Shown here piece after piece: positions 1-60,200 of a DNA stretch of 64,000 nucleotides (the stretch's first letter is position 1; the number at the start of each line of letters is the position of its first letter). This DNA comes from Amoebophrya sp. A120 (lineage: Eukaryota; Protista; Dinoflagellata). The DNA lies in contig CAJINV010000011.1 of the NCBI GenBank assembly GCA_905178155.1, forward strand, positions 2,460,746 to 2,524,745, read 5' to 3'. The notes below the pieces were generated by a model, which made no database searches, was not told the DNA's origin, and was given only the letters and a program-made list of their open reading frames with translations. The position numbers were made by a program, and so were the translations under genes.

Positions 1-118
1 GTGCACGAGCACCCAAATTTATGATTCGTGACGCAAGAGGACCCGCACAGTTGTCATGAACGAAAGTCATCCCAGGAACGTCTTGTGTGTGTCAAGCTTT
101 CTTCATTTACCACGACAG

Positions 119-2647
119 GTTTGATTTTTTCCTGATCATGATGGCTATTCTGGACACCTGGGTGATGGCCATCGTCGGCGGGGGCGGAGGTGGTCTGAAG
201 ATTTTCTCCGTGCTCCGTGTCTTGCGTGCCTTCCGATTAGTCAGGCTGGTCAAGCTGCTGCGTCAGTTCAAAGAGCTGTACCTTTTGGTGAACGGTATGG
301 TGGAAGCCTGTAAAACGCTCGTCTGGGTCGCCTGTCTGCTGCTCATCATCCTGTATTAATTTTTTTGTTTGATGTTTCTCGCTCGATCGTGGTTGCTTTC
401 GATTCGGATCTTCTTGCAGTACTCGTCAGAACCATAAAAGAGCTCTTTCATCTTCAAAAGGTGTTGGGGCTGTTGTGGTTACATGAAATTGATGTCTCAA
501 TAAACATACCCCCATCCCCTAGGTACGTGATCGGCATCATCTTCACGATTTTGATCGGCCAGAACACGGACCCGGCGCTGCGGTACCTCGGTACTTGGAG
601 CAAGGAGGATTACTGGGGATCGGTCCCAAAGTCGATGTACACTCTGTTCCAAGTGACGACGGGGGATTCCTGGGGTAGCAAAGTGGCGAGACCAATTATC
701 AAGGAATACCCGGCCTACACGATCTTTTTCCTGGTTTTCATCTTCCTGATCTCCTTCGGTCTGATGAACATCGTGCTCGGGGTGATTTGCGAGAACGCCA
801 TCTACGCCGCCAGTAAAAACACGGAGAACATGCAGAAGATCGTGCTGCGACACCAGCAACTGGTGATCAACTCCATAACGGCAATATTCGAAGCCGCAGA
901 CACGGACGGGAGTGGCGAGCTATCAAGAGAAGAATTCGACGAGGCGCTTAGCAAGAAGACGGTATAGTACGGGTGGTTCATCGTGTTGATGTTTCTATAT
1001 GCATATGCCTTTCAGGGTCGAAACTCACATGTCGGTAATCTCGAGGCCCGAAAGAAAAAGAAATGTGAGTGTAGTTGCAATAGTACAAAGCACTCTGAGA
1101 TAACAGCGACTTGCATGAAATGCAATATCAAAATCCATCTCAGGTGAAGCAAAAGTTAGAATTAATCGACGTCCCGCCAGAGGACCTCCGCATGCTCTTT
1201 GACCTCCTCGACGCCGACGGCAGCTATCAAATGCAAAAGTGTCTGGGTCCGGAAGGCTGCGAACTTGTGATGCGTGTTGCGCATCCTACAAAAATCTGTA
1301 TTGCATGGCGTGCAAAAGCTGTCCATTTCTGGCCATGCTGAGAGAGCATTTCTCATGCAGAATAGGCATCACCAAGGGGCTGCAGAACCTGTGATGCTAT
1401 GCCCTGCATTGCAGACTTGGCGGAGCTTGGAAAAACTGCAAAACAAAACGCGGAATCTTCCAGACCCAGACATTTTTGCATTTGATAGCAGCGGCGAGAT
1501 CACGATAGACGAGTTCCGAAAAGGCTGTCTGAAACTCCAGGGTACGGCGAAGTCGAAAGAAATGATAAAACTCGCGGTACACGTGTCGACATACAACAGC
1601 AACTTGGACGACATGCAGGACGCTATGGAAGAACAAAACCGAACCTTGAAGAAGATTTACAACAGGTAAAAGTTTATATACCTAGAAATTTTTGGTCGAG
1701 AGTTTGTCATGCATCTTGGTACGAACCGATTCCAGTCGCATTCAGTATAACAGTGTGTCATGGACGAGATGCTCAGGTATTCGTTTTGCAAACATCACCA
1801 AGACTGAAAAATGAAAATGTTAACTTGTTAAACAAAATCAGGCTTTACGACCTGGAGAAGCAGTATTTCCGGCACGATGCCAGCAAGAAGCCAAAGCGAC
1901 ACGAGGAGGAGGAGGCGGAGGCCCGCGTATCAAATGCAAAAATGTCATGGTCTGGAAGAATGCAAACTTGTGATGCGCATTTTACAACCCAGAAAAATCT
2001 CTCATGCACAGGCAGCAAAAGCTGGCCACTTTCTGTCACCAGGATGGGGCATTTGTCATGCGGATTCGGCATTGCGGAAGCTTCTCGAAACCTGTGATGC
2101 TAGAGCTTCCATGGCAGGCCTTCTGTGTCATGCAAAAGCAGCATGACTCTTCCAGACCCAGACATTTTTGCATTTGATACCGTGCGACCAGTGGCAAGCC
2201 CGTGAGCATCCTCGGCGCCGTGGCTGCGGCGGGCAGGCACATTGCACAGAGAAGAGGCGCCATGGAGGACGGAGAAGAGGGGGGCAAGAAGGAAGGCGAG
2301 GGGGCCGAGTACTTTTTACTTTTGCTTTTCTTTCATCAAGCCTAGCAACATGGTATGGTGTTTTTTCAAGTTGTTTGTGTAGACGGCAAATAAACAAAAC
2401 CCACGATAGAAAATATACACACAAATTTTTAGAAGTAGCTCCTAATTACAGGAAAAACGGAATATAATCGAATAACAGCGGCGTCCGCAGGAGTAGCCTG
2501 GACGCGTTGAAGGGTTTCATGGGCCGCGGAAAGACAGTGAACAATCTCGACGAACATTTTGCGGAACAAGACGAGCAAAATAGTGGTGAGGGACCCGACC
2601 CCGCGGCAACCACCGACAAACCACCACCGCCGCCGGGCGGAAGGTAG
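119..2647 (+). CDS. Single-domain voltage-gated Ca/Na-type cation channel with C-terminal EF-hands (5' partial, multi-exon)
   Basis: S4 voltage sensor LRVLRAFRLVRLVKLLRQF, pore LFQVTTGDSWG, S6 FGLMNIVLGVICEN, EF-hands DTDGSGELSREEF and DADGSGEITIDEF (the latter only after removing the 1225-1487 element). GT-AG introns 353-522, 962-1143, 1666-1841, 2309-2478; stop TAG at 2645-2647. Confidence 0.85.
1225..1487. mobile_element. Introner/MITE family A
   Basis: TIR TATCAAATGCAAAA(G/A)TGTCTGGGTC..GGAAG; flanking 5-bp repeat GCAGC/GCAGC; excision restores the EF-hand loop. Confidence 0.93.
1928..2179. mobile_element. Introner/MITE family A
   Basis: Same TIR; direct repeat CCGCG/CCGTG; excision gives EAEARATSGKPV in frame. 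Confidence 0.9.
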
Positions 2648-4046
2648 GTAAAACGCAGTCCGCTGATGGGAAAAATATGCTTCAGCGACAAGTACGAATG
2701 ACTGTACTTCATCCGAAATTAAACACTCACTTAAATTCTTCACTTCAGTTAATATCACTTTCACACACACTTTCACTTAAAAATTGCGTTAATACCAGAA
2801 ATTGAAATCCAAATCCAAGAAGTTAATCGACTCGAGTATAAGCGGATGCAGAGAAAAAGTTGTAGTTCCAAGTGCTGTCCGCGCTCGTGAAGTTCGTTCA
2901 TTGCGCGACAGAGGAGCAGCTTTCGTGCAGCACGAAAATGAAGTGCTGAAACAGTCACACCAGAAACCTGAGTAATCTGTGACTATGTGGACACACACTT
3001 TTGAAACCTGACACTATGAAATTCCTATGGTAAAAACTATTTCTGCGTGAAGTTGCGTGTGCTAGCTTCCTTGTCGTGATCGGCGTGACGACACCCTGTG
3101 GGCTTTGATTTTACACTATGTATCAACTTGTGCTGCAATCTACAACCAGTGTCATGCCTTTACAATTTGATGAAAATGCTAAATTTGACAAATGAATTCG
3201 CGAAATTAATGTTGTAAGTCAGAGTCAGTCGTCGTTGCGGGAGCCGCAAGAACCGGAACCTATTGCACCTAAGCGAAGAAGCTCAACATCGGACATAAGC
3301 AATAACAAACAAAAAGAGCCAGTCCGTGGTAATTCGAATTGATCCTGGAGGTTTGGAACTTTAAAACTGGTGCAGCGGTTTGAATAAGTATGCTTGCAGT
3401 AGAAGAAAATGAACGGCGTCAGCACCACCATTATTTCCGCGGCTAGAGCAAACATAGAGAGGAACAGATAAGAGGTATAGTAGAGAAGTACAACCCGCCA
3501 CTCATTTTTCTAGCGCACGTTCTCCCGTCGAGAATCAATTGGGATTTTCGTCTTGAGTGTTGCTTCTATTCGAGTATGGAATTCCGCTATTCAGTTCAAG
3601 TTTCTCGCAAACGGTCCTCGGTCCGCAGCAGACATGACAGACGATAAACACTTGAACTTTGTTGAAACCAGTACTGGACTTCTCAATCAATTGTACACAA
3701 GAACACTGCACTGGTGTGCTGAAAGTAATAACCTGTAGAACTACTAGTATGAGCACTAGATGACGACGCTGCTATTTTTACCCTCTTGTACACTTGTCCA
3801 AACTACCAAATCGTGGTGTAACCCGTGGTCTGCTGGAGAGGAGTGCGACCTGCTCCGTCCTTATCCGTGAAAATGAACAAACCTCAAAGATGAACTTTGT
3901 CGTGACACCCTGTGATGATGCTTTTTCGTAGTTCTCCGATGAAAGAGCATAGTGAGACAAATTTGAGGAAAAGAAATCCGGAAAAGTCTTTCGAGTACTT
4001 AAATCGAATCACGTCTTTCGGCGTTGAATATCGGCGTGTTTTATTG

Positions 4047-5001
4047 TTGAGAGGAAAAATTAAAGATGTTGTGGTAAAAGGTCATCCTATCCCTATCTGT
4101 AGTTTTGAATCGTTTCAATGGTCCGCTTGCTTCGCTTGTCGGTTTGCAACTCCTAGTTGATGATGGTAGCATCGCTTCAAGTAGAGGCAGGATCGATTTC
4201 TTTCGCTGCTTCGTTCTCTATCCGCTTTTTCAATGCATTTCGTTTCAAAGGAGTAATCATCCGAGGGGGAGTGCTCCACCTCTTGAAAACGCAATATGTC
4301 TGTCTCGTTGGTTTCTCATTCTCTCATATGCTTCCACTCTTTTCCGTTAAACCGCACGGTCAGTCTGAGTCGCCATCTTATTTGTTTTTTCGTATAGCCG
4401 GGTCTAGTTTTTATGTTATGTTGTCTAGTCTTTGATTTCTCACTACCATCATTCTCAATGCCACGTTTTGGGCTAAAGACTGAGTGAACCCACTTCGGTG
4501 GAGCGGATACTACCGAACGAATCGGACTTGTATCAGAATATAGAATAGTATGCGTGGTCGAGCTCTAGTTCATGAAAAAGTCGGCTGCACTCTTAAAGTT
4601 GCGACACGCCAAGCCCCCGATCAGCGATCAGCGATCAGAATTCCAATCCAAAAAACGGTTCTGTTCTTGTTTTTCAAGTTCTTTACAGTCAAGATCTTTG
4701 TCTCCCCCCATCCCATCATGTCTCTTCGTCTTAGCTTTCCCCCAGTACTACTAGAGATTTCTCTTCATTCGTTTCCCCGATAAGCAGAACACGTACAGTC
4801 GAGCTCGTCCACCTAGCTGTTTTGCCCTTGCTTCACGTGAGTAAGTACGTCTTTGCGATTAATATGCACTTGGGCACGTCGCCGCGGCCGTCAGTTGGCA
4901 GTAAAAGTCAACACTGCTAGTAGTTCCACAGCGTGGACTTCGGAAACGCAAACGCACTTGAATTCACAAGATGGAGCGTTACCTCCGCGCCCCGCCTGTG
5001 A
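4047..5001 (+). repeat. Diverged duplicate of the MFS gene upstream region and first codons (partner about 8945-9588)
   Basis: Shared blocks such as AGAACACGTACAGTCGAGCTCGTCCACCTAG, CAGTTGGCAGTAAAAGTCAACA and ATGGAGCG(T/C)TACCTCCGCGCCC. Confidence 0.85.
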
Positions 5002-5982
5002 AGATGGAGCGTTACCTCCTGCCCCTGAAGTGCAGCACCTGTAGTTCCACCATCCACACCCTCCAAAAGATGTTTTCCGAAAAACGACCTCATATCGCCG
5101 CGCTGCGAACTAGAATATCAAAAGACTACAAACGTCGTTAAGTGGTGTCAGAACATAGAACTGCAAAGTAAAACGTTTGTGCTGTCATCCAGCATTCGGT
5201 TTCGCTGTATGAGCATATTCTTACCACCTGGTTGGAATTTTCGGTTTGTTTTTTTTGTTTTTTGTTCTTCGGTTGTGTGTGAGTATTTCGTTCAAGTGCT
5301 GCACCTGGATTCGGTTACGCCTCATAAGTCGTGATAAAGATGAATAAATCGGGACCGGCCTGTGATCGTCTATACGAGCTGGAAAACGACCATGTAAATA
5401 TGTGGAGCCGCCGCGTTTATGTAGCTCTAGCAAAACATCAAAACACACATCAACAAAGCATCCCATAAATACACACATCAAAACACACAAAAGGACCCTT
5501 CTCGCCCGATTGCTTTTTGATGAAACTTTAACTTGTAATATTCTCTTTCAAAAGTCATAATTTTGATACCCCTGAGTGATATAAATAGATGGGAAGTAGA
5601 CCCAAGAAATTGAAAAAAGAAACTGCATCTTTTCAAAGTAGTCGCAAGAACTTACAGATGAACAAGATGTGTCTGGATAGTCTACAACTATAGTTAACGG
5701 TAAGCTGGTCGTGCTCCTTATTCTCGTCGTCATTGTATTTCCAAAGAAAAAATTGAAATTTTGCTGATAACAAGTCCCTTCACTGTACTGCCTGGCTCAG
5801 CCAGCACGAAGACGGCAAATCTTTTGCCGAAAACGCCGCAAGTATCAGCATCATGCTGCGACGAAAGGCAGCTGCGCGCGGGTTGTTGCTGGGATCGTGG
5901 TCCGCTTCTGTTTTCAGGGTGGGTGGCATCGGTATGAAAAGTAGAGTACACAACTTCATCCCCACGTCGTGCCCCCAGTTGC

Positions 5983-8174
5983 ATGTTACTGATGGTTCCT
6001 TTCACAGCAAAAACAAAAGTGCCAGTAATGGTAAAGATGCAGGAGCTCCTGATGTGCTCCGTCGTGCGACAAAAGATCGCGACAAGAGGCACTTATTCTG
6101 TTATTTCGGAATTATTTTCCGGATCGCCCTGCTCCTTTCAAGCGAGCAGAGCCAAGAACAGCGAGAAAAAGTGTGACAATTCGATATTTATGTGCATGAC
6201 GAAGGCTGAGGGGAAGTACAAAGGGAGGAAATTTTTGTGCACTCCGATAGAAGAAGCGGTGGACCACAGCACCAACTCGAACAAGGCACCTCGTCTCGTT
6301 CTTTTTGATCCAAATAAGAAGGGTCGTGATTCTATGGGTGGCAATTCCTGTCCTGTAAGGCGCTCTCAAACTCGTTAAGTACTACACTCTCAACTGTTGT
6401 TACATGAATTGCGATGCAAAACTAGCAAAAGTCGTGCAGGGAGGGAGCCTGATGCGTCGTGTCCCGCATAAATTTGGCACAGATTTACTTGTTCCCATGC
6501 CGTTTAATGGCGCTTCAATAATTTTTTTGTCATGCCAACTGGCGTCTTGATTGTGCGGAGGCTGATCTGGTAACCAAAGCGTGCGCAAGCGCTCGCAAGA
6601 GCGCTTTGCGCGCGGGCTTGCCCGCGCGCAAAGCGCTCTTTGCGAGATGCTCATCCATCGCAAACGCAGCGCGAAGGCTTTGCCGTTACCATATGGGAGG
6701 AACTCGGGGGTATGCAATCACTGGAAAAATCGGGCATTACGAAGTGTGTTTTGCCTTCAGAAAGCGGATCGGGCAGAATTGCTGGGAATTTTCCGGAAAG
6801 CAGCCAAAACAGCAATTGCCAAGCGGGGAAGGGGTAAAAAAGAGCATTTTTGCAGCTCCGCCCAGTCTGAATCTGAAAAAAGAGAATGGCACTTTCGGCT
6901 GGGGCCGATGGTGTGATGCGTTTTATAGCGGAAAATGCGTCGCGTCCGGGCAGCTCCAGCCGCTTTAAAATTGAAAAAAAACGTTGAAAAAATGCAATTT
7001 TTCGCAGCATGCAAGCGGGCGAGAAAATTTACCGATTTTCTCCAGTCCCCGGAAAACGCTTGGAAATTGAAAATGACAACTTTTTCTGAAAAAGCAAAAA
7101 CCGCTTAGAAATTGCCGCTCAAAAGGGGTTCGCAAAATTTTCCGCAGGCCCGTGCCACCGGGATTGGACGAGAAAAAAACAACTGTCAAGCCTGTGGAGG
7201 TGTGTCACACGGGCACGGTTTTCGACCTCTCTGAGGTCGCAAATTGGAACCCTTGCCCCGCTTGGAAAAGCCCGATCTGGGTGGCCCGAAAGGGCAGCCG
7301 GAAATGAACAGAACTGCGTTACTTTTGTAATTTGCGTATTTTTCCGGGCCAGCGTGCCCTCGTGCATAACGTTATGCACGACGGGGCGATGCTCGTTGAA
7401 AAACGCATTCTTTTGCGCGCCCTTGCTTCCTGGTTAGAGGATGAGAGCGCGGCCCGAAGCGGGCTGCAGTGTTGGACCGCGGCCCTTCGCACTGTAGCGG
7501 TAGCCTTCGCACTGTAGCGGTAGCCCCTTCGGATGCGCGGTAGCCTTCGCACTGACTGGGGTGGTTCGCACGCTTTTGGTTACCAATATCGCCCTCCGGG
7601 CGCGACCTTAATAGGTTTTTTTGCACGACAAATTGTGATGCATTAACAGTTGTTGACTACAGTGTAGTAACCTTTGAGACCACTGTCATATCCTGGTTGC
7701 TGGGATTGTAAGTATGATTCTGGATGCGGACCGAAAACGACGTGCAAGGAGCTGTCTCTGCACATGAAGGAATCGAAGACACCGGAGGATTTGGGGATGA
7801 GCCATGACCAGTGGGCGGAATCACTGTGTGAACGGGCCGGCGAAGGCTTACAATACATGCACTACTCCGACACGAAGGTCCTGATCAACGAGAACAACCC
7901 GGATTGGATGTTGAATGACAAGACCCTCGCGGAAAAATGCTGCACGAAGCCGTTTATGGTGCTTATGCATTGCAAAAGCTATGTATCCAATACAACTATC
8001 AGTGATCGCATCTTCTTTGATGTCACAAATTTCGCCAGAAGGGGAAATGAAAGTTAACTTTACAAAAAAGTAGATTTGTCCTGCATGATTAGTACGAATA
8101 CGATACTTTTGCAGTGGATAGTACCCGCCGCCCGATCCACCTCTGCGTCCAGTACCTCCTTTTTGCAAGCATAA
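5983..8174 (+). CDS. Cys-rich hypothetical protein (5' end uncertain) interrupted by two TIR elements
   Basis: ORF 5983-6378 (..MGGNSCP) joins ORF 7674-8057 (PGCWDCKYDSGC..) in frame once 6356-7690 plus one TCCTG is removed; after the 7964-8120 element it continues to TAA at 8172-8174. Confidence 0.55.
6356..7690. mobile_element. Long (1335 bp) non-autonomous TIR element acting as an intron
   Basis: TCCTG direct repeat at 6351-6355 and 7691-7695; degenerate TIRs (TCTCAAA..TACTACACT..CAACTGTT); right tip read on the minus strand, TATGACAGTG, equals the family E tip; no transposase-like ORF. Confidence 0.8.
7964..8120. mobile_element. Introner/MITE family B
   Basis: TATGCATTGCAAAAG ... GATACTTTTGCAGTGGATA; decayed repeat GTGCT/GTACC. 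Confidence 0.75.
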
Positions 8175-9556
8175 ATGAGTTTGCACGGTAACAAGATGAA
8201 CAACTGGAACCGCACTGAAAAAGTTCTTGAACTGCTTGAAAATAAACTTCCTGAATTGCTGCGACGTAGTACAACTAGCAGCCCGGCGCCGACCCAACGT
8301 CATCTACTTCACCAGTGCTCATCTCTCCTCCTTACAATTCAGAGCCACGTACGTCTTTTTCATCATCATTCGCATCATTCAAGATTGAGCGACCACGTAG
8401 TGCTTCTTCATTTTCAACACCTAGGTGAAGATGAGCGTCAACGTACAATACCTTTCTAGTTTCTGAAAAGTTACGTAAAAATCCGTAAAAATCAATGGCG
8501 ATTTGTTGTTCCGTATTAAGATTGTTCAATATAATCAGGAGAGCAGGTTTAATAGCAGTAGACCACGACATCACCGACATCGGCACTGACTCTTTTCGTA
8601 TGAACCTTGTGAATCTTTGTTTTGATGCAGTAAATTAATTATAATTTCATCTTCATTATTATTACAACTAACGAAGTTTGTCGCTTGTTTCAGAAGTCTT
8701 TCTCGATTCTCGTCGCGTTGGTTCTTCTGATGTGGTTGTCCGCCTTCTACACCTCTTAGTGGGGTTGAGGGCTTCAAATATTGAAGCATATCTAGGACTA
8801 CATGTGACGACGACGAGAGAGGTCATCGACAACGAACAAGGCAGCTGATTGCTATAATTTTTGGTGCTATAATCCGTGCAATGGTGTTGTTCAGCAGCCA
8901 AGTTGTCAATGCGCTTAACTTGTTTTGTTATCTAGGGCATGATGTTTTGAGAGAGAAAATGAAAGAACTTCAACGTGTTTTAGAAAAATTACATTTCATC
9001 TGTTTTGAATCGTTTATTTCATGGTCCGTTTTCTTCGCTTTTCGGTGTGCAAATCCTAAATGCTAGCATCGGTTTAGTAGGCAGCAGGCGCTCTTGGTCT
9101 TCGACTGCTTCGTTCTTCGCCGTAATTTTCAGTGCATTTCGTATCAATGCCGAGGGGGAGTGCAGCTTCGCCTCTTGAAAATCTCTCGTTTGTCCTCTCA
9201 CATGCTTGTTCTTCTGCTTTTCTCGTTAAATCACAGGCTTCTGTTCTTGTTTTTGAACCTCATATGAGCCAACAAGATCTCCGTTGTTTGTTCTCCACGA
9301 TACCCCTTCCTCTTTTTCCCCAGTAGATAGTCCCCTTCATTTCTCGTTTTCCCGAGAAGAAAGTAGAACACGTACAGTCGAGCTCGTCCACCTAGTTTCT
9401 TTTGCTCTTCACGTGCGTACTTAAGTACGTCATGGCGATTATGCATGACTCGGGAACGCCGCGGCCGGCAGTTGGCAGTAAAAGTCAACAGTGCTAGATC
9501 CACAGTGCGGAGTTTGAAAAAGCAAGCGCCGCATCCGCACTCGATTTCAACACAAT

Positions 9557-12456
9557 ATGGAGCGCTACCTCCGCGCCCCGCCTGTGACGAAGTCCGGCGG
9601 TGTGAAGGGGCGGTATACCCAAGCGAGCGGCTACGAAATAAGCGATCATCACTCTAAGGAAATAGGACACATAACACCGACGGGAGGAGGGCTAAATGAC
9701 GGCGTTTCCTCCGCGGACACCGCTTCGAATTCCACCTCTTCAACTGCCGCGTCAACCGCTAGCAAGAAGGTATTTTCCGGTGCGGCGCGGAGCCCCGACG
9801 TCGTGTATGGCGCTCGCGGGGCTAATGCTCGCGGTGGGACAACATCAAGCAAAGAAACAAGCGTTACGCAACTCTCCTCCAAGGGAAGTGCGATAGTACA
9901 GTCCGCCGCTTTGATGTCCTCGCGGGACTTGCAGAAGTGGAAGCCGGTTATCGACCCGAAAATCCTGATCATGCTGGTGAACATGGTGGACTCCGCCGAC
10001 ATGTCTCTCATTGCCTCCTGCATGAAGGCGTTCGAGCGAGATTTCGGGTTTCGCCCGAGCGATTTGGGGATCTTGGGTCTCTGTCAGGCCGCGAGCTTTT
10101 CCTTGACCTTACCTATTTGGGGCGCGGCGTTGCCGAAGTACGGGTGTCGGACGCTGTTGTCACTCGCCTGCTGGGTCTGGATGATCACCACTTTCTTAAC
10201 GCCGATGGGACACACGCTCGGTATCTATGTAGTAATGAAGATCAACATCTGTTCTTGTTCACATGATTAATATTTTAGTGTAGAAGTTTGGACGAGGTGG
10301 TCGTTCTTTCAGTGTAGTCCTTCGATCTTGGCAGCTATAGTTTTCTGAGGAAGGGGACCCAGCTGAAAAAAAAAACAACAAAACAGCGATGCAAGCCTGC
10401 CTGCGTATCCTGAACGGCGCGGCGCTGAGCGGGGTGATGCCGGTTTCCCAAGCGGTGCTCGCCGACATTGTGGACGAAGACCAGCGGGGCCAGGCTTTTG
10501 GCTGGGTCGGCGCGTTGCACTCGGTTGCAAAAGTGATTGTCACGTACTACGTCCTGGCGATGGGGGAAAACTGGGCGCAGTGCTTCTACCTGGTTGGTTT
10601 CGCCACCTTCTTGCTAATCATCCTGCTTTACACGCAACTACCCGACTCGTACGGGAAGCAAACGCAGATGGTGGACAGTGTCACCGGGGAACCCATCAGT
10701 TTCGGCGAGCAGGCGATCCGGGCCGCGAAACGAATTTTGCAGATACCCTCCTTCATGGTTTTAGTTGCGCAGGGGGTGGTTGGCGGAACGCCCTGGCAGG
10801 CGATGTCGTTTCTGAACATGTACTGGCTGACCCTCGGGTTCTCCAACACGGAAGCGGCGACCATCGCGGCCGTGATTAATTCCGGCGGGATCCTGGGTTG
10901 CCTGTTGGGCGGCACCATGGGCGATTTTTTTGCCCGGAATGTTTCCTCTGACCGGGGGCGCGTCATGGTTGCGCAGTTGTCGGTATTATTAGGGATTCCC
11001 TGCTGGTGCGCGATGCTGAGCAGCACGCTGGTGGACGGCAGTTCTGTGTTCATGGCCTGCCTGTGTGGCTTTTCCTTCTACCTGCTCGCCACGTGGTGCA
11101 GTTTCGCCGCCAACCGGCCGATCTGCACGGAATTGGTGTCCTCCTCCGCCGACCGGGCGCAGATCGTGGGTTATTGGGAGGAAAAATCCCCCCTCCCCAT
11201 ATCGAAAAGGTATGTTTCCGAAAATTTGTGTTGCTGATTTGTGACCACAGATCAGGTTTGTCTTGTAGGAAGACAAGTGCAGAGGCATCCGCCCAATTGT
11301 GGAAGCGATTTGGCGTGCTGTTGGTCCTAGAGCAGGGTAGCCGTTTGCAATGCTGAACAACTAGACCTGAGCGCTCCAACCTAGGCTGCGGATCTGGCCG
11401 CAGTGCCTTACTGCAAGACAGGTCGGATTTGTGTACGCAAATCAGCATCAGAAATTTTCATTTTGATATCGGGAGGGGGGATTTTTCGTTTTGATATGGG
11501 CTTGTGGGTGCTCATCGAGGGCACGTTTGGTGCTTTGTTCGGTGCTATCAAGTGCAAAAATGTCTGGGTCTGGAAGGATGTAACCTGTGATGCGCATTTC
11601 AGAACACGCAAAAATCTCTCATGCATGGGTAGCAAAAGCTGCCCACTTTCTGTCACCAAAATGGGGGATTTGTCATGCGGGTTCGGCATTGCGGAAGCTT
11701 CTCGAAACCTGTGATGCTAGAGCTTCCATGCCAGACCTTCCGTGTCATGCAGAAACAGCATGACTCTTCCAGACCCAGACATTTTTACATTTGATAGGTG
11801 CGCCGGTTGTTGGGTTTGTGTCGGAGGCGTTTGGCTACCGTTTGTCGAAAGACGTCCTCTATCAAATGCAAATATGTCTGGGTCTGGCAGAATGCAGATT
11901 TCTGTCATGCTGTTTTTGCATGACACAGAAGGTCTGTCATGGATGCTCTAGCATCACAGATTTTGAGAACTTTTCGCAATTCCCAATCCGCATGACAAAT
12001 CCTCCTTTTTGGTGACAGGAAGTTGGCACCTTTTGCTGCCTATGCATGAGAGATTTGTGTGTGTTGTGAAATTAATGCGCGTCACAAATTCGCGTCCTTC
12101 CAGACCCAGACATATTTGCAATGCATATTCTTGCATCCGGCCACAGTGCGACTGCCGCGGAGACGAGCGCGTACAACCAGCAGGAAAAGAAGAACGCGGC
12201 AGCATTATCCTCCGCATTGACAGGATTAGGCGTGATCTGCTGGACCTTGTGCTTACTGATCTGGTCGGTGATGTACCTCACTTTTCCGGCGGATCGCGCG
12301 AACGCGAGGAGGCTAGAGCAGGAAGAGAGGCGGCGGCAGGAGGAGGAGCTGGGCATAGAGGGCGACGAGCTCGGGATGCCATTAGATTTCGACACCGGGA
12401 CGGGAGATGAAGACGCGCACGAAACCAGGCCTCTGGGGGCGGGGAATAGGCACTGA
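9557..12456 (+). CDS. MFS transporter, Spinster-like
   Basis: Motifs LVNMVDSADMSLI, LGILGLCQAASFSLTLPIWG, ADIVDEDQRGQAFG, GGTMGDFFAR; GT-AG intron 10221-10386 plus three non-canonical TIR introns whose removal restores QIVGLWVLIEGTFGALFGAPVVGFVSEAFGYRLSKDVLASG. Confidence 0.85.
11172..11496. mobile_element. Introner/MITE family C
   Basis: TAT...GAAAAATCCCCCCTCCC.ATATC inverted at both ends; repeat TGGGT/TGGGC. Confidence 0.85.
11546..11796. mobile_element. Introner/MITE family A
   Basis: Family A TIR; repeat GGTGC/GGTGC; body very similar to 1928-2179; the only short copy readable as GT-AG (11542-11797). Confidence 0.93.
11860..12127. mobile_element. Introner/MITE family A, reverse orientation
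   Basis: Body is the reverse complement of the neighbouring copy; repeat TCCTC/TTCTT; right tip is of the family B type (TGCAATGCATA). Confidence 0.88.
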
Positions 12457-12883
12457 GAATATATTCTCTGTATCTATAGCAGTTTGAAGATGCTTGGATA
12501 CTACAGTCAGAATTTTCCCAGAGCTTTCATCTCTCAAGCGTCGTTGTGTAAGTATACTCGCTTCTGAAAGAAACGGTCGTTTTCACCGATGAAGCGTGCG
12601 CTTCGTCTGTCGATGAAAATATTTCTAAGAAAAGAATAGAATTTCATATTGTTGCGCGGCCATTTTTCGCAAAAAGCTGCTCACAGCAACGGTGATATCG
12701 AAAAGCCATATGTTATATTGCTTCGCTTTGACACGACTTTTTGAAGGAAGCAGCATTGTGTTCGTTTGTCGCACGACTTTTTTTTGTTCGCTCCGGAACG
12801 ACGTTTTTGCAAGTGAGACACTTCAAATTATTGTTCCCGAAGCGGTTCCGTTTTGACTTTTTCTCTATCGAGATCACGTGATC

Positions 12884-14980: not shown

Positions 14981-15726
14981 AGTGCTTTTTGTGTAGGTGT
15001 AGCTGAATGGTGAAGACAAATGTGACCATTCCGGCGCATTGCGATTGTGAAGTACGTATCAAAGAAGTTCTTGAAGTTCTTGTTATTTCTGAGATGGACA
15101 TAGGCACGATCTGAACCTTGTTAAGCGCGGGGAGACGCTATTGAACTATTCAGGGTTGACGTAGAATACGCAAGTTTTAGAAAAGGCTCATCCCCATTGC
15201 TGATGAAAATTGTACGATCATGTTCATCCCGAAAAGTCGAAATGCCGCAACGGTCATCGTGGCCGCGCGTCTTCTCAGGATCAAGATTCACGACAGCTAC
15301 GCCACAACACACAAGTGAGCCGCGCTCTGAAATATATAACAAGTGACACAAAGAACAAATGCACGAGCACGTCGTGGCCGCAACGATCAGGTGATTCAAC
15401 GAAGAGGCTGAAAATGAAATGCAAGTGGATACGAAATGATTGCATAGTTCCCCCGATGAACAATTCGAATCTCTTGCTGGATTGGTCTCTTCACCGCAAA
15501 AGGATTGCAGACAGGTGGATCGTTGAACTAAGAGGTGGAAATAGTGGATATTTTTTCTATGGTGGTCTTCATCCGTGGAGACAAGATGGCCAAGGCTTTT
15601 TCTCTGACTGTAACGCATAAACGCGCCGCGATTTCTTATCTAGAAAGACATTCACATTCATTGACGCGTTAGATTATTTTCGTTTCTGCGATAGCCACAC
15701 AAATCCGTTCGAATTCGTCCCACAAC

Positions 15727-40890: not shown

Positions 40891-40959
40891 ATGATGACGT
40901 TGACGATCCTCTTTCTTACGCAGGCTATCATGATCCTCAGCGAAACACTACAGATCTGA
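40891..40959 (+). ncRNA. Candidate box C/D snoRNA, target unknown
   Basis: ATGATGA at 40891, CTGA at 40956-40959, immediately upstream of the snoRNA array. Confidence 0.45.
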
Positions 40960-40995
40960 AATTTTTGCAGAAGTCATCAGTTCATCTCGACGAAA

Positions 40996-41794: not shown

Positions 41795-42274
41795 TAAACT
41801 TTTTCGAGATCGCAAAGAAGCAGATGAGCAAAATAACAGAGCGTGGTCTTTGCGTTGTTGTACGGTTCTACTTCATTTGAAGTGTCGCCCAGCGATTTTT
41901 CATCGTTTTTGATCTTTCCCAGCTCTGCTCGAGAATCCGCGTCCCGTACGAAAGTCGAAGTCCTCGACTCAGTTCCATTCTCCACCTCGCCACGGCATCT
42001 TGACCGACCGAAAATTATCCATTTCTTGCTCCTCCTTGTCTTCGGCAGAGTCTCATCTCTTCGCGCATAGAACTCTCTTCGCTCATCTGCTTTATTTGTG
42101 GAATCCTTCCTGCTTCTTCCTTCGCAACGAGAACACGTACGACCATACGACCTACCTTCAGCGGGATAAGAAAATCTTTTTCCGGATCAACGGCTGCGCC
42201 TCGCTTCGTTCTTAGTGTGAGATGATTTAGCTTCTTCTGAAAAATAAAGCGGATTTGTTATTTTCTCTCTGTCC

Positions 42275-48200: not shown

Positions 48201-51200
48201 GCGGAGGGGTCGAATTCTTATTTTCGGAACGGCGCGCGCCGAAGAATTTTTTTGTTGTTGCATCCAGCACTGGCCTCGGAAACAAGTCGTGGGCCACGCC
48301 TCCGCGCGGAGGCGAGGATTTCTTGTTTTCCCAGTGCGGAGCAAGAGCAACGACAACGGCGGGCCATTCCTGAGGAGGTGGGCGCCGCGGTTGTCTGGTT
48401 CCTTCCTTATGGGGCATAGTGCGCGCGCAATGGCGCCGTGTGGCTGCGCTCCTTAAGGCGCATGTAGCGTGGTGCGTGCGTTGTTACGGGCCTTTTGTCC
48501 GAGGGTAGCGCCTGTCGTGCAGGCGCCGCTGCATGGGATTCCGCTCCTGATCTCGGTGGCGACTCGCGAGGGGCTAAGGGTATGAGCATGCATGGGACAC
48601 CGGCGCCACGACAAAGCCAACCAACGGGCCGGGTCTTTGTTTGAGGCGCGCCACGTTTCGCCCTACCTTTTTTCGTTGTGTTGTTTCTGGAAAATCAAAA
48701 CTCATAGTCATGCGGCAACTTTTTGCGCCCGGCGGTGTAGGGGCCGACCTTCGTTGGAGTGAACTCTGCAGTAGTGGCGCCCGGCTTTCTTACAAACTGC
48801 CGGACGCCTTGTGCGATCGATCGGCGACGCACGACTCTCCCCTGCCCTCGCCAAGGCAGCCGCAGTTTCTCTGGCGCCGGGCAATCTGCTTAAATTATTG
48901 AAGTATCTGCTTCTACTACCTGATACACAGTAGACACGACGAGGACCAAAGGGAAAGCGGAAGTAGAGGACCAGCAGACGCCCGCGAAAGACGCTGTGAT
49001 GGGAGATGGGGGAAACATCGACAGCAAAGTTGATGACGAGGAGAAGAAGGAGGAGGCGGAACTAGTTATGCCTTGGACGGTCGTTAGCATACAGAAGGGT
49101 GAATTTGCAGTGAATTTGTATTGCATGACTTGCATTTACTTCAAAAGAGAAGTGCGCTGCGTAAAGGGCTGGGCACGAGCCCAAGCAGCTCACGCAGCGT
49201 GAAGGGCTGCTCGGTGCCAGGTGGCACTTGCAGCACCGAAAGAAGTAGTGGTAGGTCTTGCTGGGGCCCGCCGGACTGTGTAGTGCATATGTAACCAAAG
49301 AGTGTGGGTCGTGGGGCTCTTGTTCATCTGCGCGTCTGCCTCAGAAGTTCCTCTCCGGAATGGTCGGGAGGGAGGGCGACGCCTGAACACAGGGGCACTA
49401 GTTCAACACGTGCGCTCTCACGAGTTGTGGTTGTGGCTTGGAATTGGATATCTGGGAGTAGCCTCGGGTGGAAAGGAAGGCACGACTCGGCTACGGGCAC
49501 TAGCTTGCTTGGCCTGGTGTGCTCGGCTTACAACTCCCCAGGCGTGTTTTTGCCCCCGGAGCAAGTCTTTTTCGAGGTGGCTCTCAGGTCAAGAATTCTC
49601 TTGGTGAATTTTGAGGCTTTTTGTTTTTGCGACACTTTTTTGAAGCCCCCAAACCCGGAGTTTCTCACGCGCTAGCGAATTTTGAAAAGGAGCCGGAGGC
49701 CAAAATTCACCGGCGCCCTTTTCAAAATTCACCCCAAAATTCACCGGGCGCCCATTTTCGACCGTGATAAGCAAACTTTAGCGCAGAAAAGTGCTCAAAA
49801 AAGTGCACAGATAGGCCATGAGAAGGAACGCAAAGGGGGAAAAAGCGTAGTCCTCTGCTGCCCTAAGCCCGCCTGTATTCTGCTGAAAATGCCGCAAGAT
49901 TTCACGCGCCTGCCGGGAAAATGCGTCAAAGCTCTCGGCCGGGTCCTTTCGTCCTTGCCTGCCTTCTTGCTTAGTTGTATGCGCTTCGCAGCCTTTATTT
50001 CTGGCGTCTTTGCCGCGGCTGCTGCAGTGCTCTTCTGCGAGAACCCGGAGGCGCAAAAACCTGCCCAAAGAACGGCGCCCGGGCCATGTCCTCTGGCTGC
50101 CCACTGCACAAAAGCCCGCGGCTGCTGCGCGGTGCAGGGCCTTCTACTTCCCAGAACAGGGCCAAGAGGGACAATGTCCCGGCGGGCTCATCTGCAATTT
50201 GGCATGCAAAATTCACTACAAATTCACCACTTCTCATGCTAACGGGTGTTAAAGCTCTAGCATCGACAGCAAGGTTGATGACGAGGAGAAGAAGGAGGAG
50301 GCGGAACTCGAAGGAAATAACGAAGATGAGGACAAAAATCAAGGCACATATCACATGTAAAAATGTCTGGGTCTGGAAGATTCTGAGACTTGTCATGCAT
50401 GTTTTGCCTGGGCCATGATGTCTGTGATGCATGCCCTAGCATCACAGATTTTTTGAGGGCTTCGCGATGCCTATATCGCATGACAAATGCCCTCTCCGCG
50501 TAGCAAAAATTACACTCCCTTTGCTGCTCATGCAATACAGATTTTTTTGGAATCCAAATGCAGCATCACAAGTTGCATTCTTCCAGACCCAGACACTTTT
50601 ACATTTGATAGCACAACATCAACGACAACAAATTTCCTCGACCAGGTGCAGCTGAAGCTGGAGGGGCCGTACTATTTCGAGACCGACAAGGACACCAAAG
50701 AGGTGGAGATTGAACTCTCTCCCTGGATCGAGGGGAAGTACGTGTTGGTGAAATTTATGGACTCCTGGTCAGACAAGAAGGAAAATTTCGATCTGGCCGT
50801 CATGGGATTGCTCGGGTTCCCGGGGAAGCAGAAGAAGAAAGAAAAGAAGCAAGAGGATTTATTCGGGCCCATCTGGCACCGGCAATACAGAAAACCCATC
50901 GTGCACCCATGCGTATTGAAAATGTTTTTTTTCTTTCTAATAGTAATAAAAATGATTTTCAATTTTTTGTGACGATGAGTTCTGCACGCGTTAGAAATTC
51001 AGAGCTTTCATTTCGCTATTTCGTTTGCTAACTAAGTGAACGAAGCGCTTTGTAATATGTGAACCTGTTGTACCACCTGTGCATGTGCTGGCGGTACTTC
51101 TTCCAACAAAAGCAAAACGAAATAAGTATATGATTTATGACTGTTGCCGAACTACATCATCCTCACCCAATGAAAACTACAGCTTCTCCGTTCCATGTAT

Positions 51201-54200
51201 TCCTCATCGGGTTGGGTGTGTGACGGTCGCGACTTTCCGGGTGGTTGCCGGTCTAGGCAGACGGATTTCAACCAAACTTCCGTCTACACCATGACCTTCC
51301 GCAGCTCTAGCACCGGGGTGGATTTGTGTGAAAAATGCGTGCGCGACCCGTGCATGGGGCAAGTCACGAAGGAAATCGCCAAGCAGGACGTCGAAGCCCT
51401 CGTAATCGGGTGCCACGACCGCGGTGATTTCTCCCCATCTGACGTCCACGTGGCCAAGCTCGCGTCGGTGCGGATTTGCACGGCCGTCCGACGGAACTGG
51501 CGGTATGTTTTACCTTTTTACTTAGAAGCGGGACTCTTGGAGGCGATGCAGCACGTGATGGCGAAAATTGACGACATTGTCATGTCTTTGGACGAAGGGA
51601 ACTTCCGGCTAGTGTCAGCATCTGCCAGCTCGGCAGCGGAGAAGGCGCGCCGACAGCCCAAACCGGCGTCGAATAACAACAGTTCAGAGGAAAACGGGAA
51701 CAACGGAAATAGCGCCAATCCGAACAAATCCTCGTCCTCGTCCCGAAAAGGTGGGTCGTCCAGTCTGGAGTGCCACAAGCGGATTCTGCGGCAGTGCATG
51801 CACAGTCTGATGACGGATATCAGTCACTGCGTGTTTTTCGGATACCGGGGGGATTTACATCCAGGCGACCAAGTGTACTACAAGGTGGATACAGCGACCA
51901 GTGTCGGAACAGCAGTAGACCAAGGTAGTTCATCGACATCAAGCAATAAAACTTGGTACCAGGGAAAGTTCATCAACTTCTCGGACGACGGGGAATACGC
52001 GATCGTGGAGGGCCCACCAGATCCAAGTGTCACTGCCACGAAGAGTGGGGAAACCAATAAATCGTCGAATAGTGGTTCTCCGAAGAACGAAAATGCGCTG
52101 TCAAAACTCTCGTCCCTATTCCGGTCCGCATTACCAGGAGGTGGTGGCAGTGCGGTCGCTGCTCAACCCTCCGCGGAGAGCGAGAGCTTGAAAAAAGCGT
52201 TGGAACTGCAGCACCCGGCAAGACCGGTGGAGCACAGGGTGAACCCGATGTACTGCTGGCGGAAATCGACCATTGTGCCGCCGAGCGACGGACCGCCATT
52301 GAGTGCCCCGATGTCGGCGCGGAGCGGGAAAACGGACATTATGAAAACTTTGGAACTGGCGGATGAGGTAGAATAAGAATGGATTTTTTCTTGTCTGTGA
52401 CTTATTTCTAGCATTAGCAACCTTGTGTGATAGATATTACGAGACGTGCTTGGGTTTTGTTGTTCTTGCGAGGGCCTGTTCGTAGAGGTAGATGAGGTTA
52501 TTGACCAGTACAACAAGCTAGTGGATACTTTCTTCAGTTGTTTCGAATTATTGTCGTCTCGAAAAATTCCATCAGGTTTGCCGCGGTCCGGACTGTGATC
52601 TCTCCAAAGTCCAGTCCCTCGTGAAGCTCTCGGACACGATGTGCACGAACGGACAGGGCTGCACGCTCTTGTTCCTCGTATCAAATGTAAAAATGTCTGG
52701 GTCTGGAAGAATGCAACTTGTGATGCTGAATTTGGATTCCAAAAAAATCTGTATTGCATGAGCAGCAAAGGGAATGCAATTTTTGCTACGTGGAGAGGGC
52801 ATTTGTCATGCGGAATAGGCATCGCGAAACCCTCAAAAAATCTGTGATGCTAGGGCATGCATCACAGACATCATGGCCAATGCACAACATGCATGACAAA
52901 TCTCAGAATCTTCCAGACGCAGACCCAGACATTTTTACATTTCATACCTCGCGGTGTTGCACAACTGTCCCAACAACATCCTGAAATGCCTCATCGAAGA
53001 AGGCGGTGCCAGCGTCGAGGTCGGCGGGCTCCGCAGCGGCATCTCGCTTTTCGAACTCGCGCAGGGCAATGGGTATGATTTGGAGGGGCTGAAGCTGCTG
53101 GACTCTGCGGAGCGAAGAACGAATAATCACCCGTTTATGCAGGAAAACCCTCTCACCGGGGAGAAGACGCTGCCCGAGTCGTTCTTTTTGAAAAAGGCAT
53201 CGGGTATTGAGGGAGACGGCGCAGCTGTCGGGAAGAACGAAGTTTTGTGGGGCAGTTCGGACGACGAATCCCTTTCCGATCGCGGCAGCAAGGGGTTCGA
53301 GGAAAAAGACTCTGACGAAGACGAGGACGAGCTGAATCCGGAGCAAAATCTGTCGAAGATTTTCGCGGAGGGGGGAACGAAAAAGCGACGGTTAAACGCG
53401 AGCCCGGATGGCGAGAATGCCAATCGTGATTCGGGAAAAAACAATAACAAAGACGACGATACAAAGCGAAAGAAGAAGAAGCAGAAGAAGTCGAAGTCCA
53501 AAGAGCGGAAGGAAAGCCTCAAAAAGGAGAAAAAGAGCAAGAAAGCTTTAAACAGTAAACCCAGTACGGAAGACATCATCGACGTTGAAGAACAGAAAAA
53601 TTCCTTAGAAGGTGGCGCTACTTCTACTTCCAACAAGTCGTGGCACTTTCTGTCCGTCAACGGCTTCCGGGAGAAATTCGGCGCGAAATTGCTGCCGTTA
53701 ATCCACCAGGTGATTACCGCGTATCCGGTCATGCAGGGAAACTTCGCGCCTTGCCAACAGAAGGAAAGCAGCATGATGGGCAGCATGACGCAGATCATCC
53801 AGGCGGCGGAGAAACTTTTATCCGCGACAGACAACACCTGGGCGGGTACGGTGGGCCCAAGATTAGCGGCTAGTTCCTTGCAGTCTCCGTACACCACGGA
53901 CGGGCCTTCGGCAAAGCAGATGCTCCAGGTGATAGACCAGTTGCCGATTGAGGGGTTGTACGCGCTGGAACCGATGGTGAAAAACCCCGCGCTGATCTAC
54001 GACATATTGTACAGTTCTCGCCCGGCGTATCAAGCGTTCACGAAAATCCTGCAAGCGATTGTGACAACGGATTCCCTGGAAATCGCTTATCACGGGTGCC
54101 AGTTTTTGAATCTAATCGCGTCTTATCGGAATTTTCTCGTGTACAAAATGGACGACACTTCTTGCACGGAGCCGAAAACGCCAACCGCGAAAAAGATCCC

Positions 54201-57200: not shown

Positions 57201-60200
57201 TTCCTTTCACGGTCGCATTCGATTATAGACACGATCACGAGCAATAGTTTGCTAATCTTCCACTGCGTAATAGCAATAGAAGCCGGGCCGTCGTAGAAGT
57301 GGAGTTTTTGAATCGTAGGCATCGTAAAAAAAGTGTAAGAAAGTTTTTGGCTTTGTTGAACCTTCCCATTGATTCGGTAAACCTGAACGTATCTTCTTCT
57401 CCCAGGTGCCGGCAAGTTAGGGGACGACCCGTCTTACCGACGACCCGGGCACCAGGTCCGCAGCAGTGGCAAAGGACCTGAATCATCTTCCGCGGAGAAG
57501 GGAAGTGGTGCTTCTGCCTTCGGGAGCGGCAAGGGATGGTTCGTGAACAGCTCTGCCGGGCCGGTTTACATCGAGGAAAAGGGCGGCAAGAAGGGCAAGA
57601 AAGTGGGCATCTTTAAGGGGTCTTCTGCCGATTTCTGGAGCAGCCTGGGCGTCGTCGACGGTGGGAAGGGGAAGGGCAAAGGCGATGCTAGTGGTAGTAC
57701 GGGGAAGGGTCGTTCTCCGAGTCTTGCTCGTGCGGGTTCGAGCCGCGGCGCGGGGCGAGGCCCGATCGACGCCATGTTCCAGGCGGCCATTGACGCGAGC
57801 GGAGAAAACGATCCTGCATCGAGGTCGATCTTCGGGTTCGGAGGTGCATCAGCAGCTTCAGCCGCGGCAAACCAACCGCCTGCCCTCAGCGCTCTGTCGG
57901 GTAGTTCCAGCGCCCCGGCAGCAGCGGCTGGCGCGGCAGCCGCTGCCGCTCCGAGCGGAGGAGAACAAATGTTGAACAATGTTTCAGCAGCAATCGCCGC
58001 ACAGCAAGAGAATTCCTCCGCTTCTTCCGCCGCCAACGAGATCAGCAGTTTCGCGGAGGAGAGCGTGCGACCCGACCGCGCGGGGGAATCTTCCGCTGCG
58101 GCCAGCGACAACAACGGGGGAGAGCAGCAAAACCAGAATAACCCCTCTGGTGACAGCAACCCTATGAACATTCCCCCCGCCCCGGAAGCCCCGGCACCGC
58201 CACCCCCAGATCATGATCGCCCCGCTGCGCCGTTTCCTGCCGCTGCAGTGGATCTAGTTAACATGCAAGACGACAGCCCGCGCCAGCGACGGGGATCAGT
58301 TGGTAACGACAGCGAGCGCGACCCTCTCCTCGAGGGCCTACCGCAAGGCGGAGATTCCGTCCCGTTTGAGGAAGAAGAGGAGGAAGTGTCCATTATTCTA
58401 AGTACAAACGTCCCCACCCCAGGGTTGTCATGCAAATCTGCATGCTTAAAATGTTTCTCATGCGCCGGAGCCCCATGAGAAGCATTTTCTAGTCGTGTTT
58501 TGGAGTTTGTCATGCTCCAATCAGCATGATATGCTAGATCTGTCATGCTGCTGAACTACCTCAAACAGCACTACACTACGGGCCCAAACTTGTCATGCAA
58601 AACAGCCAAAGCTTGTGGATTTGTCTAGCCGATTCCCCATCTTGACTACGGGGTGGCGACGTTTTTACAAATGATATCCATCTCCGCGTCCGGGGAACGA
58701 CCGGAAAACGAGAATTTGGACGGGGACATAAACCGATCTGGAGCTGTATGCATTGCAACAGTATCGTACTACTAAGTAGTTTAAATTGCATTACAAATTA
58801 GCCCAGCATTACAAATTGAATTTGTAATGCTGATTCACCTTGGGAAAGAGATTTGTCATGCATAAACGCAATTACTACTAGTACGATACTTTTGCACAGG
58901 ATAAGCTGCTGGCGCGTCGAGCAACAATCCGAACAACGACGACTGGATGGAAGACAGCCAGTACGACGACGGCGTATGACAGTGCACAACTCCCCCTCCC
59001 CCTCATTTGTATAGCATGAACGGCAAGCCAACTGTCAGCAAGAATACAGGTTTTGCATCACAAATTTGCACAGGAGTGTAGTGCTATTTGGGCTGCCAAA
59101 ATTTGTCATGCAAAAAGTGCCAAGAGGCAAAGGGTAGATTTGGTATTTTGCATTACAAATGAGAGGGATGGGGGGTTGTACACTCTCATACGGCGAGGAC
59201 GATTTTTACTACGGTGTGGACGACCACGACGACCACGACAGCGAAGGAGACGAGCCCTATCCTGTGCAAAAGCATCATACTAGTATGAATTGCATTACAA
59301 ATTGGGTTTGCATTACAAATTGGATTTGTAATGCGGATCTGCCTTAAGATGAAAATTTGTAATGCATGACTGCAATTACAACGATACTTTTGCATTGCAT
59401 AAGCCCAGTTCCGGCGGAATCTTAGAGTCCTTCCTCGGCGGGGGCGCGGGGGGAGCTGCGTCTTCTTCCGCTGCTGTTGAGTCGGGTTCGCAGGCGGCCG
59501 CGGCATTGTCCGGCGTGGATATCAGCGGCCGGAGCCGGGATCGACTTTTGGAACAATTGGTTATGATGGAAGAAATGTTCGCCGGCGGAAGGTCAAGCAG
59601 GTACTGGTTTACGTGGTTTGGTGTTGGGATTGGTATATGATTCGTCCTGGTTGTTCTGGTCGTAAATGACAAACCAACTACTAGTACGGTCTTCCTCTTC
59701 TAGGATCAAGGTCGTCCATAGGTGGATGTAGAAGCGCACTTACTACTCAGAAGTGATTATTCCCATGATTCGGAAAATAAATCGTTCTTTCTTCATGAAG
59801 CACAAATCATAAAAACCAAATCCCAGGTCGGGCGCCGGCGGTGTTTCATCCGGCAACTCACGCTCCGCTGCTCGCGGTCTGAGCGGCAGCATTTTCAGTC
59901 TTTTGTCGGGCGGCGCGGGGGGCCGCGGAGGCGGTGGCTTCGACGACGATTTGCTGGTGTCAATGGGCGGCGGACATAGTTCAGACCGCCACCGCTCCAG
60001 TGCACAAGCCGTGGAGAGCCTGAAGCGCGTGGGCGAGTTCCCGCTGAAAGCGTCGCTGCCCGGTTTCACCAGGACCGCCGAGGTGAACGACCCACGGTCG
60101 ACGCTGGAGCACCCGGTCTCCGAGCGGGTTACGCAGGCAGAACTGGAGTCGCAACTCGAATACTTGTTGCCCGAGCAGGACAATGTCAATGGCGATAATC

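Follow-up and report, generated by a model that had tools for sequence, protein, structure and literature searches.

We analysed a window of 64,000 nucleotides (nt) from the dinoflagellate Amoebophrya sp. A120 (contig CAJINV010000011.1, positions 2,460,746 to 2,524,745; coordinates below are those of the window, and all elements are given on its plus strand). It contains 18 short elements with TAT...ATA termini, which are non-autonomous inverted-repeat transposon copies flanked by 5-bp target duplications and situated inside coding exons. The comparison of this DNA with contigs from several sequencing runs supports the conclusion that the elements are non-GT-AG introns of transposon origin and are excised from transcripts. 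Mismatches between the two copies of certain target duplications point to a single cut position as the likely one for all elements, one base before the initial TAT and four bases past the terminal ATA. We posit, with a probability of about 0.5, that their removal is the work of a relaxed U2-type spliceosome that takes its guidance from the element tips and operates in this one register. The class itself is already published; what is new here is the candidate fixed register, its match to the GTA donors of the genome's ordinary introns, the independence of removal from element orientation and the absence of a target signal.

The elements were recognized by TAT...ATA ends with arms matching at 14 or more of 20 positions, together with a motif-free scan that looked for inverted ends bordered by a direct repeat. 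Across the whole window the two scans delineated 18 elements of 144-491 nt, spanning 1225-59401, as against a mean of 0.3 and a maximum of 2 for the same element criteria in 50 block shuffles of the window. Family A accounts for nine of these, namely elements 1 (1225-1487), 2 (1928-2179), 5 (11546-11796), 6 (11860-12127, reversed), 9 (33394-33655), 10 (45489-45749), 12 (46555-47045, a copy enlarged by about 230 nt and having an additional short right end), 13 (50349-50610, likewise in reverse) and 14 (52679-52946). Family B comprises elements 7 (14141-14295), 8 (14607-14756), 16 (58747-58903) and 18 (59258-59401), along with element 3 (7964-8120), which is assigned by its end sequences only and not by BLAST. 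Elements 11 (45798-46077) and 15 (58394-58676) constitute family C, while families D and E are represented by element 4 (11172-11496) and element 17 (58975-59190), respectively. The flanking 5-bp repeat is exact at 12 elements (1, GCAGC; 5, GGTGC; 8, TGAAA; 9, GAAAA; 11, TGAAG; 12, TGCGC; 13, GCACA; 14, CCTCG; 15, TCCAT; 16, AGCTG; 17, CGGCG; 18, AGCCC), matches at four of five positions at elements 2 (CCGCG/CCGTG), 4 (TGGGT/TGGGC), 7 (TGACG/TCACG) and 10 (CATCT/GATCT), and at three of five at elements 3 (GTGCT/GTACC) and 6 (TCCTC/TTCTT). A prior sequence-only reading of this DNA had listed 18 elements in five families with TAT...ATA terminal inverted repeats, a set that far exceeds the shuffled expectation; the 5-bp repeat it ascribed to each is exact in only 12 of the 18, and its inventory overlooked at least one longer member, at 6356-7690, as well as two further long inserts considered below.

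TAT occurs at all 36 ends in the window, being a criterion of selection, and A is found at positions 11, 12 and 13 of 34, 35 and 33 of the 36 tips, respectively. An end-to-end stem is predicted for every element, with 10-20 of the first 20 positions paired. The elements hence display the hallmarks of miniature inverted-repeat transposable elements (MITEs) or other non-autonomous inverted-repeat transposons, i.e., terminal inverted repeats, a target duplication of fixed length, many copies and no coding capacity, the longest stop-free stretch being 85-150 amino acids across six long element copies. In a DNA-like run the summed contig depth over the elements is about 4,300-155,000, compared with 24-37 on unique DNA, a figure that is not a copy number. 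Some tip variants are common to several families and are unevenly paired within individual elements, as in element 6, a family A member with a family-B-type tip; this pattern suggests an exchange of tips between families.

Each of the 18 elements lies in coding sequence, whereas coding DNA makes up a fraction of roughly 0.64 (P about 3e-4, with approximate gene models), in agreement with the previous claim that every element interrupts a reading frame, none having been noticed in intergenic DNA. Once the element and one repeat copy are removed, the plus-strand frame is open on both sides at 18 of 18, whereas with the element kept at least one stop appears in every frame. Pfam matches support the identity of several of the interrupted genes: an Ion_trans/EF-hand protein, with element 1 in the EF-hand region of this ion-channel gene; an MFS transporter with element 4; a STELLO-like protein with elements 7 and 8, the exons flanking the latter matching STELLO profile positions 22-56 and 58-112; ribosomal protein eS1 (Ribosomal_S3Ae) with element 9; and a HECT ligase with element 10 in the 5' part of its gene. 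Of the host labels given in the sequence-only reading, Pfam thereby supports eS1 and, with matches below the curated cut-offs, the EF-hand and STELLO pieces; for the ankyrin label given alongside them, the two exons on either side yielded no Pfam match. The nearest protein found, the A25 ortholog protein P0001 (41% identity), aligns without a gap over the predicted junctions of elements 10, 11 and 14; the comparison is informative at these three, the flanks of elements 12, 13 and 15-18 being too diverged.

Six of 12 listed sequencing runs were compared with the window. Four of them represent one sample in the form of assembled contigs; none of the listed runs is on record as RNA, and our treatment of these four as RNA is a guess, made because GT-AG introns are missing from their contigs, which terminate in poly(A). 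Such contigs were matched to positions 1-15200, which hold elements 1-8, and to 1500-8800. They lack the element and one repeat copy at seven of the eight elements compared (1, 2 and 4-8), while element 3, lying outside the reach of any RNA contig, is not bridged. The most direct case is element 2, where a joint from 1926 to 2184 with one ambiguous base is present in all four RNA-like runs; the contigs carrying it also drop two GT-AG introns, and that of one run ends in poly(A). At elements 1 and 4-8, removal was read from the coordinates of contig pieces and exact length sums. Between 960 and 2479 the RNA contigs of two runs hold 465 nt, as predicted with elements 1 and 2 and three GT-AG introns removed; between 11166 and 12130 a contig of one run holds 104 nt, as predicted (leftmost placement) with elements 4-6 removed; and between 14137 and 14757 those of two runs hold 178 nt, as predicted with elements 7 and 8 and one GT-AG intron removed. 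The longer member (6356-7690), which is 1335 nt long, is flanked by TCCTG/TCCTG and has a degenerate left arm starting with TAA and a right end of ATA; it is also skipped, by a joint from 6350 to 7691 with five ambiguous bases, in one contig whose short side is only 25 nt. The evidence for this member also includes an open frame. Nested within it is a repeat whose end lies at 7613 and which is found again elsewhere (DNA-like depth 700-1200, with loose RNA ends at 7613-7614).

DNA-like contigs, in contrast, run from flank into element over 10 borders in 1-15200 at a depth of 24-33 and with no differences. The elements are present in bulk genomic contigs, and we saw no empty site among the joints listed for 1-15200 that would point to DNA-level elimination of the kind known for internal eliminated sequences. 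These observations uphold the sequence-only reading in its treatment of the elements as introns. A raw RNA run carrying the same species label yielded 98 matched reads, nearly all on one 32-nt element end and none on host genes, and has no bearing on expression.

Because the repeat copies differ at some elements, the position of the cut within them can be read from the mRNA. We define the register k as the number of left-repeat bases kept in mRNA; at k=4 the intron consists of the last left-repeat base, the element and the first four right-repeat bases (N|TAT...ATA-N4|), which for element 1 would be 1224-1491. The key junction is that of element 2, whose mRNA keeps the left base at the mismatched position 4, so that k is at least 4. 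At element 6, with mismatches at positions 2 and 5, RNA pieces in two runs start at 12130 with no other letters, giving k between 2 and 4; at element 7, mismatched at position 2, those of two runs end at 14137, again with no other letters, giving k of at least 2; and at element 4, mismatched at position 5, a piece from one run ends at 11166, indirectly giving k of at most 4. If elements 2, 4, 6 and 7 share one register, only k=4 fits, and a single register of k=4 is the likely one for all elements. GT-AG or GC-AG termini are available to one of the 18 elements at any register and to none at k=4. The single case, which the sequence-only reading had correctly singled out by sliding the boundary, is element 5 (11542-11797 at k=1); its repeat is perfect and carries no register information, and its use of GT-AG at k=1 speaks against itself only on the premise of a fixed register. 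Stop codons, as a further test of the register, provided no informative case. A literature search found no paper stating the register, its coverage excluding most subscription journals and figures 3 and S19-S25 of Farhat et al. 2021.

The register gains independent support from a comparison with the genome's own GT-AG introns. Their donors read GTA in 16 of 16 introns placed in the window and GTAT in 10 of 16, with G at +5 in none; the acceptors are A-rich and end in CAG without a pyrimidine tract (for example in the introns at 353-522, 962-1143 and 1666-1841). These features fit the reported absence of U1 in this organism. At k=4 the elements read N-TAT, so that +2 to +4 are TAT in 18 of 18 and match the GT-AG donors, with +1 unmatched. 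The longer member at 6356-7690, despite the loss of TAT, retains T at +2 and A at +3 (it begins with GTAAGG at k=4), and it is still skipped. At the other end, A occupies -7 in 12 of 17 GT-AG acceptors compared with a local frequency of 0.43 (p=0.02, uncorrected), and the first A of the terminal ATA likewise falls at -7.

These observations were extended to related elements by searching metagenome contigs for the family A tip. The search recovered at least 183 stretches, of which 179 loci with about 408 kb of unique sequence were analysed; 76 displayed loci share a contig prefix. The counts that follow hold among the matches listed. The related elements are at best 81-97% identical to those of the window, and no unique window DNA is shared. 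There are 319 end pairs, six of them chance pairs in a single locus (L001) to which a viral scan had led, its viral match proving to be a chance hit in AT-rich coding DNA. Dropping nested pairs, pairs with repeats matching at fewer than three of five positions and those of L001 left 300, of which 244 look like coding sequence once the element is removed and 230 can be assigned clearly to a strand, as judged by a strand and coding caller that is correct for 16 of the 18 window elements. An exact 5-bp repeat flanks 244 of the 319 pairs and a 6-9 bp repeat none. The elements occur in both orientations relative to the host frame (family A 50:35, B 15:17, C 7:9, D 3:5, with 89 of 230 lacking a family assignment), and at none of its five positions does the base composition of the repeat depart from the phase-adjusted background (p 0.14-0.64, n=186). 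A GT-AG reading is possible at some register in only 13 of 189. Of 52 mismatches between repeat copies, 31 occupy third codon positions, against a baseline of 0.37 (p=8e-4), where about 0.54 would be expected with one copy drifting freely.

A codon boundary falls at k=4 in 122 of these 230 elements (53%, p=1e-9), against only 6 of 18 in the window. We did not count this excess as support for the register, because k=1 and k=4 fit it equally. As an observation in its own right, it extends over loci L002-L180 without a target-sequence bias to account for it. Tips located through their internal core rather than through TAT have T at position 1 in 262 of 264, A at position 2 in 264 of 264 and T at position 3 in 258 of 264, while the two arms mismatch each other at positions 4, 5 and 7 in 111, 103 and 153 of 230 elements. 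Given positions 1-3 this invariant in arms this imperfect, the tip looks to be read as sequence and not only as stem.

Since removal is independent both of the orientation of the element and of GT or AG in the target, the ends themselves direct it, as the sequence-only reading had proposed. Its corollary that U1/U2-type signals are not involved fares less well: as N|TAT matches the GT-AG donors of the genome at +2 to +4, the probability of a modified spliceosome is no lower than that of a route of another kind. Under the mechanism we favour, a DNA transposase would make a 5-nt staggered cut at insertion, and all resulting elements would be cut from the transcript in the one register k=4. N|TAT would be read as a 5' site like the GTA(T) donors, with no need for G at +1; the paired arms would bring the ends together, the 3' site would be measured from the ATA tip, and the first A of the terminal ATA, at -7, would serve as branch point. 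Because both ends carry the same motif, a spliceable intron would result whatever the 5-bp target and whichever way round the element inserts, and the invasion of exons would thereby be accounted for. In favour of this mechanism, the passages of Farhat et al. 2021 drawn on here (PMC7789003) report U2, U4, U5, U6 and 83 of 89 spliceosomal proteins in A120, with U1 not found, and MITE-derived non-canonical introns of Fritillaria, discussed below, are likewise reported to be removed by a spliceosome.

Several points nevertheless weigh against this proposal. The spliceosome normally requires G at +1 and a terminal AG, whereas at k=4 the intron would open with G in six, C in five, T in four and A in three elements, and only 1 of 18 ends in AG; G is also not enriched at repeat position 5 (64 against 55 expected, n=186, among the listed matches). 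The donor would be partly buried in the predicted stem, the signal of A at -7 is weak, and only six of the 16 GT-AG introns used for comparison are RNA-backed, the other 10 being predicted by eye and frame-checked. Conservation of TAT may be explicable by the transposase alone. As to the register, each informative junction allows more than one k, and a set of four random junctions has a 35% chance of agreeing with some single register and a 9% chance of producing this exact pattern; given the former figure, a fixed register is not proven. A register test from DNA alone, the AT-bias between repeat copies, has 7-15 mismatches per position and no consistent direction. The RNA-like data come from one sample as assembled contigs, in which minor variants are dropped. 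Finally, Farhat et al. 2021 call the splice sites variable relative to the hairpin in the parts of their text cited here (PMC7789003).

The foremost competing explanation, which we consider the less probable of the two, is a separate, non-spliceosomal route of the kind proposed for the nonconventional introns of euglenids. An endonuclease or tip-binding protein would cut on both sides of the terminal hairpin, 1 nt ahead of it and 4 nt beyond it, and a ligase would join the exons. The arbitrary first and last dinucleotides, the use of both orientations (family A 50:35 and B 15:17 among the matches listed) and the end-to-end stems predicted in 18 of 18 elements all accord with it, but we know of no enzyme for such a route. 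The supported register, one of six possible, is moreover the one that matches the genome's donors at +2 to +4, the longer member, whose left arm is decayed and which starts with GTA, is skipped nonetheless (in one contig), and pairing in the terminal stem is frequently flawed at positions 4-7. A precedent exists in the Euglena introns, which, in the sections of the reports used here, employ fixed spacers from a paired motif (PMC12501133) and leave as circles (PMC11282704). The still bolder form of this idea, namely that a dinoflagellate possesses a second, non-spliceosomal mRNA splicing pathway by which thousands of transposon-born introns are removed by measuring 1 nt and 4 nt from their tips, so that an intron leaving no scar would arise at any 5-bp target and in either orientation, and one tip motif would serve both transposition and splicing, strikes us as doubtful.

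Considerably more improbable is spliceosomal removal with a floating junction, in which each element would use whichever repeat position suits, with GT-AG where available, as at element 5, and the fit to k=4 would be a product of chance. The 35% chance of mutual fit speaks for it, as do legends in Farhat et al. 2021 that give a variable position, 1-5 nt from the repeats (PMC7789003), and the use of several frames by Polarella introners (bioRxiv 2020.10.14.339549), both as far as the excerpts relied upon go. Yet GT-AG is possible in only 13 of 189 elements among the listed matches, the targets lack any enrichment of splice signals, and the third-position share of repeat mismatches in the same set (31 of 52) lies near the 0.54 of a single drifting copy, where a much higher share would follow if both copies were coding. 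Ambiguity of the aligner within perfect repeats would, furthermore, itself mimic variable borders. Short direct repeats around strong hairpins are a known signature of template switching, and the joints of the DNA-like run are those among the matches listed; nevertheless, it is very improbable that the skipped form is a reverse-transcriptase artefact or a product of DNA-level excision with no splicing in vivo, because the element 2 product, which keeps the left base at position 4, would require a switch on 1-nt homology despite a 3-nt perfect match, retained elements put stops in every frame (of the eS1 gene too), the ortholog P0001 is collinear, repeat mismatches favour third codon positions (p=8e-4, among the listed matches), and DNA-like contigs pass from flank into element at the single-copy depth of 24-33.

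The elements find their place among introns already described from this organism. Farhat et al. 2021 reported RNA-validated non-canonical introns of about 250 nt in repeated families in Amoebophrya A120, whose border 'remains unknown', with inverted repeats comprising TAT, seven looser bases and at least three A, direct repeats of 3-5 nt (5 bp in the legend of Fig. S19) and no transposase inside them, according to the portions of that paper used here (PMC7789003). The window elements have the same properties, i.e., RNA-supported removal without GT-AG (7 of 8 compared), a TAT-N7-A3 tip and a 3-5-nt direct repeat at the boundary, and the link to that paper made by the sequence-only reading is thus well founded; in anatomy there is no difference in kind between the two. 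Among the rows listed in the part of Gozashti 2025 consulted (PMC12130899), A120 has inverted-repeat families of about 150, 215, 255, 280 and 305-350 nt, their superfamily being given as unknown.

Outside Amoebophrya, the introns of Fritillaria borealis are likewise MITE-derived and non-GT-AG, with inverted repeats and target duplications, and, going by the portions of two later texts that relay the finding, are removed by a changed U2-type spliceosome (Henriet et al. 2019, via PMC11282704 and bioRxiv 2025.08.15.670264). Their ends are mostly AG-AC or AG-AT, whereas the terminal dinucleotides of the window elements are arbitrary and the role of the spliceosome is one that we infer. The nonconventional introns of euglenids resemble the window elements in ending at fixed spacers from a paired terminal motif, in their suspected MITE origin and in their junction repeats (PMC12501133, PMC11282704, in the sections drawn upon), and full-length circles have been reported for them (PMC11282704, same sections). 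They differ in having CAG/CTG, N3 and N5-6 spacers and a purine as first exon base, as against TAT/ATA and spacers of 1 and 4 nt; the CAG/CTG motif with N3 and N5-6 spacers was not found at the ends of the 18 elements. The introners of Polarella, Symbiodinium, Aureococcus and Micromonas are also introns born of DNA transposons, with target duplications and a phase-0 excess (bioRxiv 2020.10.14.339549, PMC11282704, in the parts cited). Unlike the present elements, whose targets are free of such constraint, they recruit G(T/C/A) and AG from the element or the target, so that their targets are constrained.

Were the register fixed at N|TAT...ATA-N4|, the search could concentrate on a single predicted donor, a single candidate branch A and a single 3' distance. 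There would then be either a spliceosome that needs neither G at +1 nor AG or a separate splicing route; in addition, the annotation of tens of thousands of introns would be fixed, and the scar-free invasion of exons at any site would be explained. Naturally mismatched target duplications, moreover, allow the cut position to be read from existing RNA data.

We found no transposase Pfam match in 37 open reading frames (ORFs) of the window, one ORF of a 1104-nt element or four ORFs inward of unpaired tips (about 0.47 Mb examined), in line with the statement, in the text of Farhat et al. 2021 used here, that no transposase was found in A120 (PMC7789003). The hAT superfamily, which has a subgroup with 5-bp duplications and was put forward by the sequence-only reading, is a candidate source of the missing enzyme. 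The 1104-nt element, at 505-1608 of metagenome locus L027, has TAT...ATA ends and an exact 5-bp repeat and belongs to another family; its ORF of 238 amino acids has no Pfam match. The window holds two further long inserts. The first (47184-48925), situated in the linker of the HECT gene, is a 1742-nt TAT...ATA element with offset, degenerate arms and a flanking repeat matching at three of five positions. The frame shifts if k=4 is applied on both sides and is kept with a k=4 donor and the adjacent CAG acceptor; hence, the insert may represent a hybrid junction that combines the two. The second (49064-50260) is a 1.2-kb insert with inverted arms ending in CTAG, enclosed by 48-nt direct repeats (49016-49063 and 50261-50308) that are identical at 47 of 48 positions; removal of the insert with one repeat keeps the frame, and its 48-nt duplication is unlike the 5-bp class.

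All gene models that we found are on the plus strand, which is in keeping with the arrangement of dinoflagellate genes in co-oriented blocks. Two adjoining F-box-like genes of similar layout occupy 20514-23415 and 24206-26776. Beyond the genes, the non-coding segments 4102-5004 and 9002-9590 are 72-76% identical to each other, and at 40996-41795, where the DNA is apparently non-coding as well, a unit of about 90 nt occurs five times with spacers between the copies.

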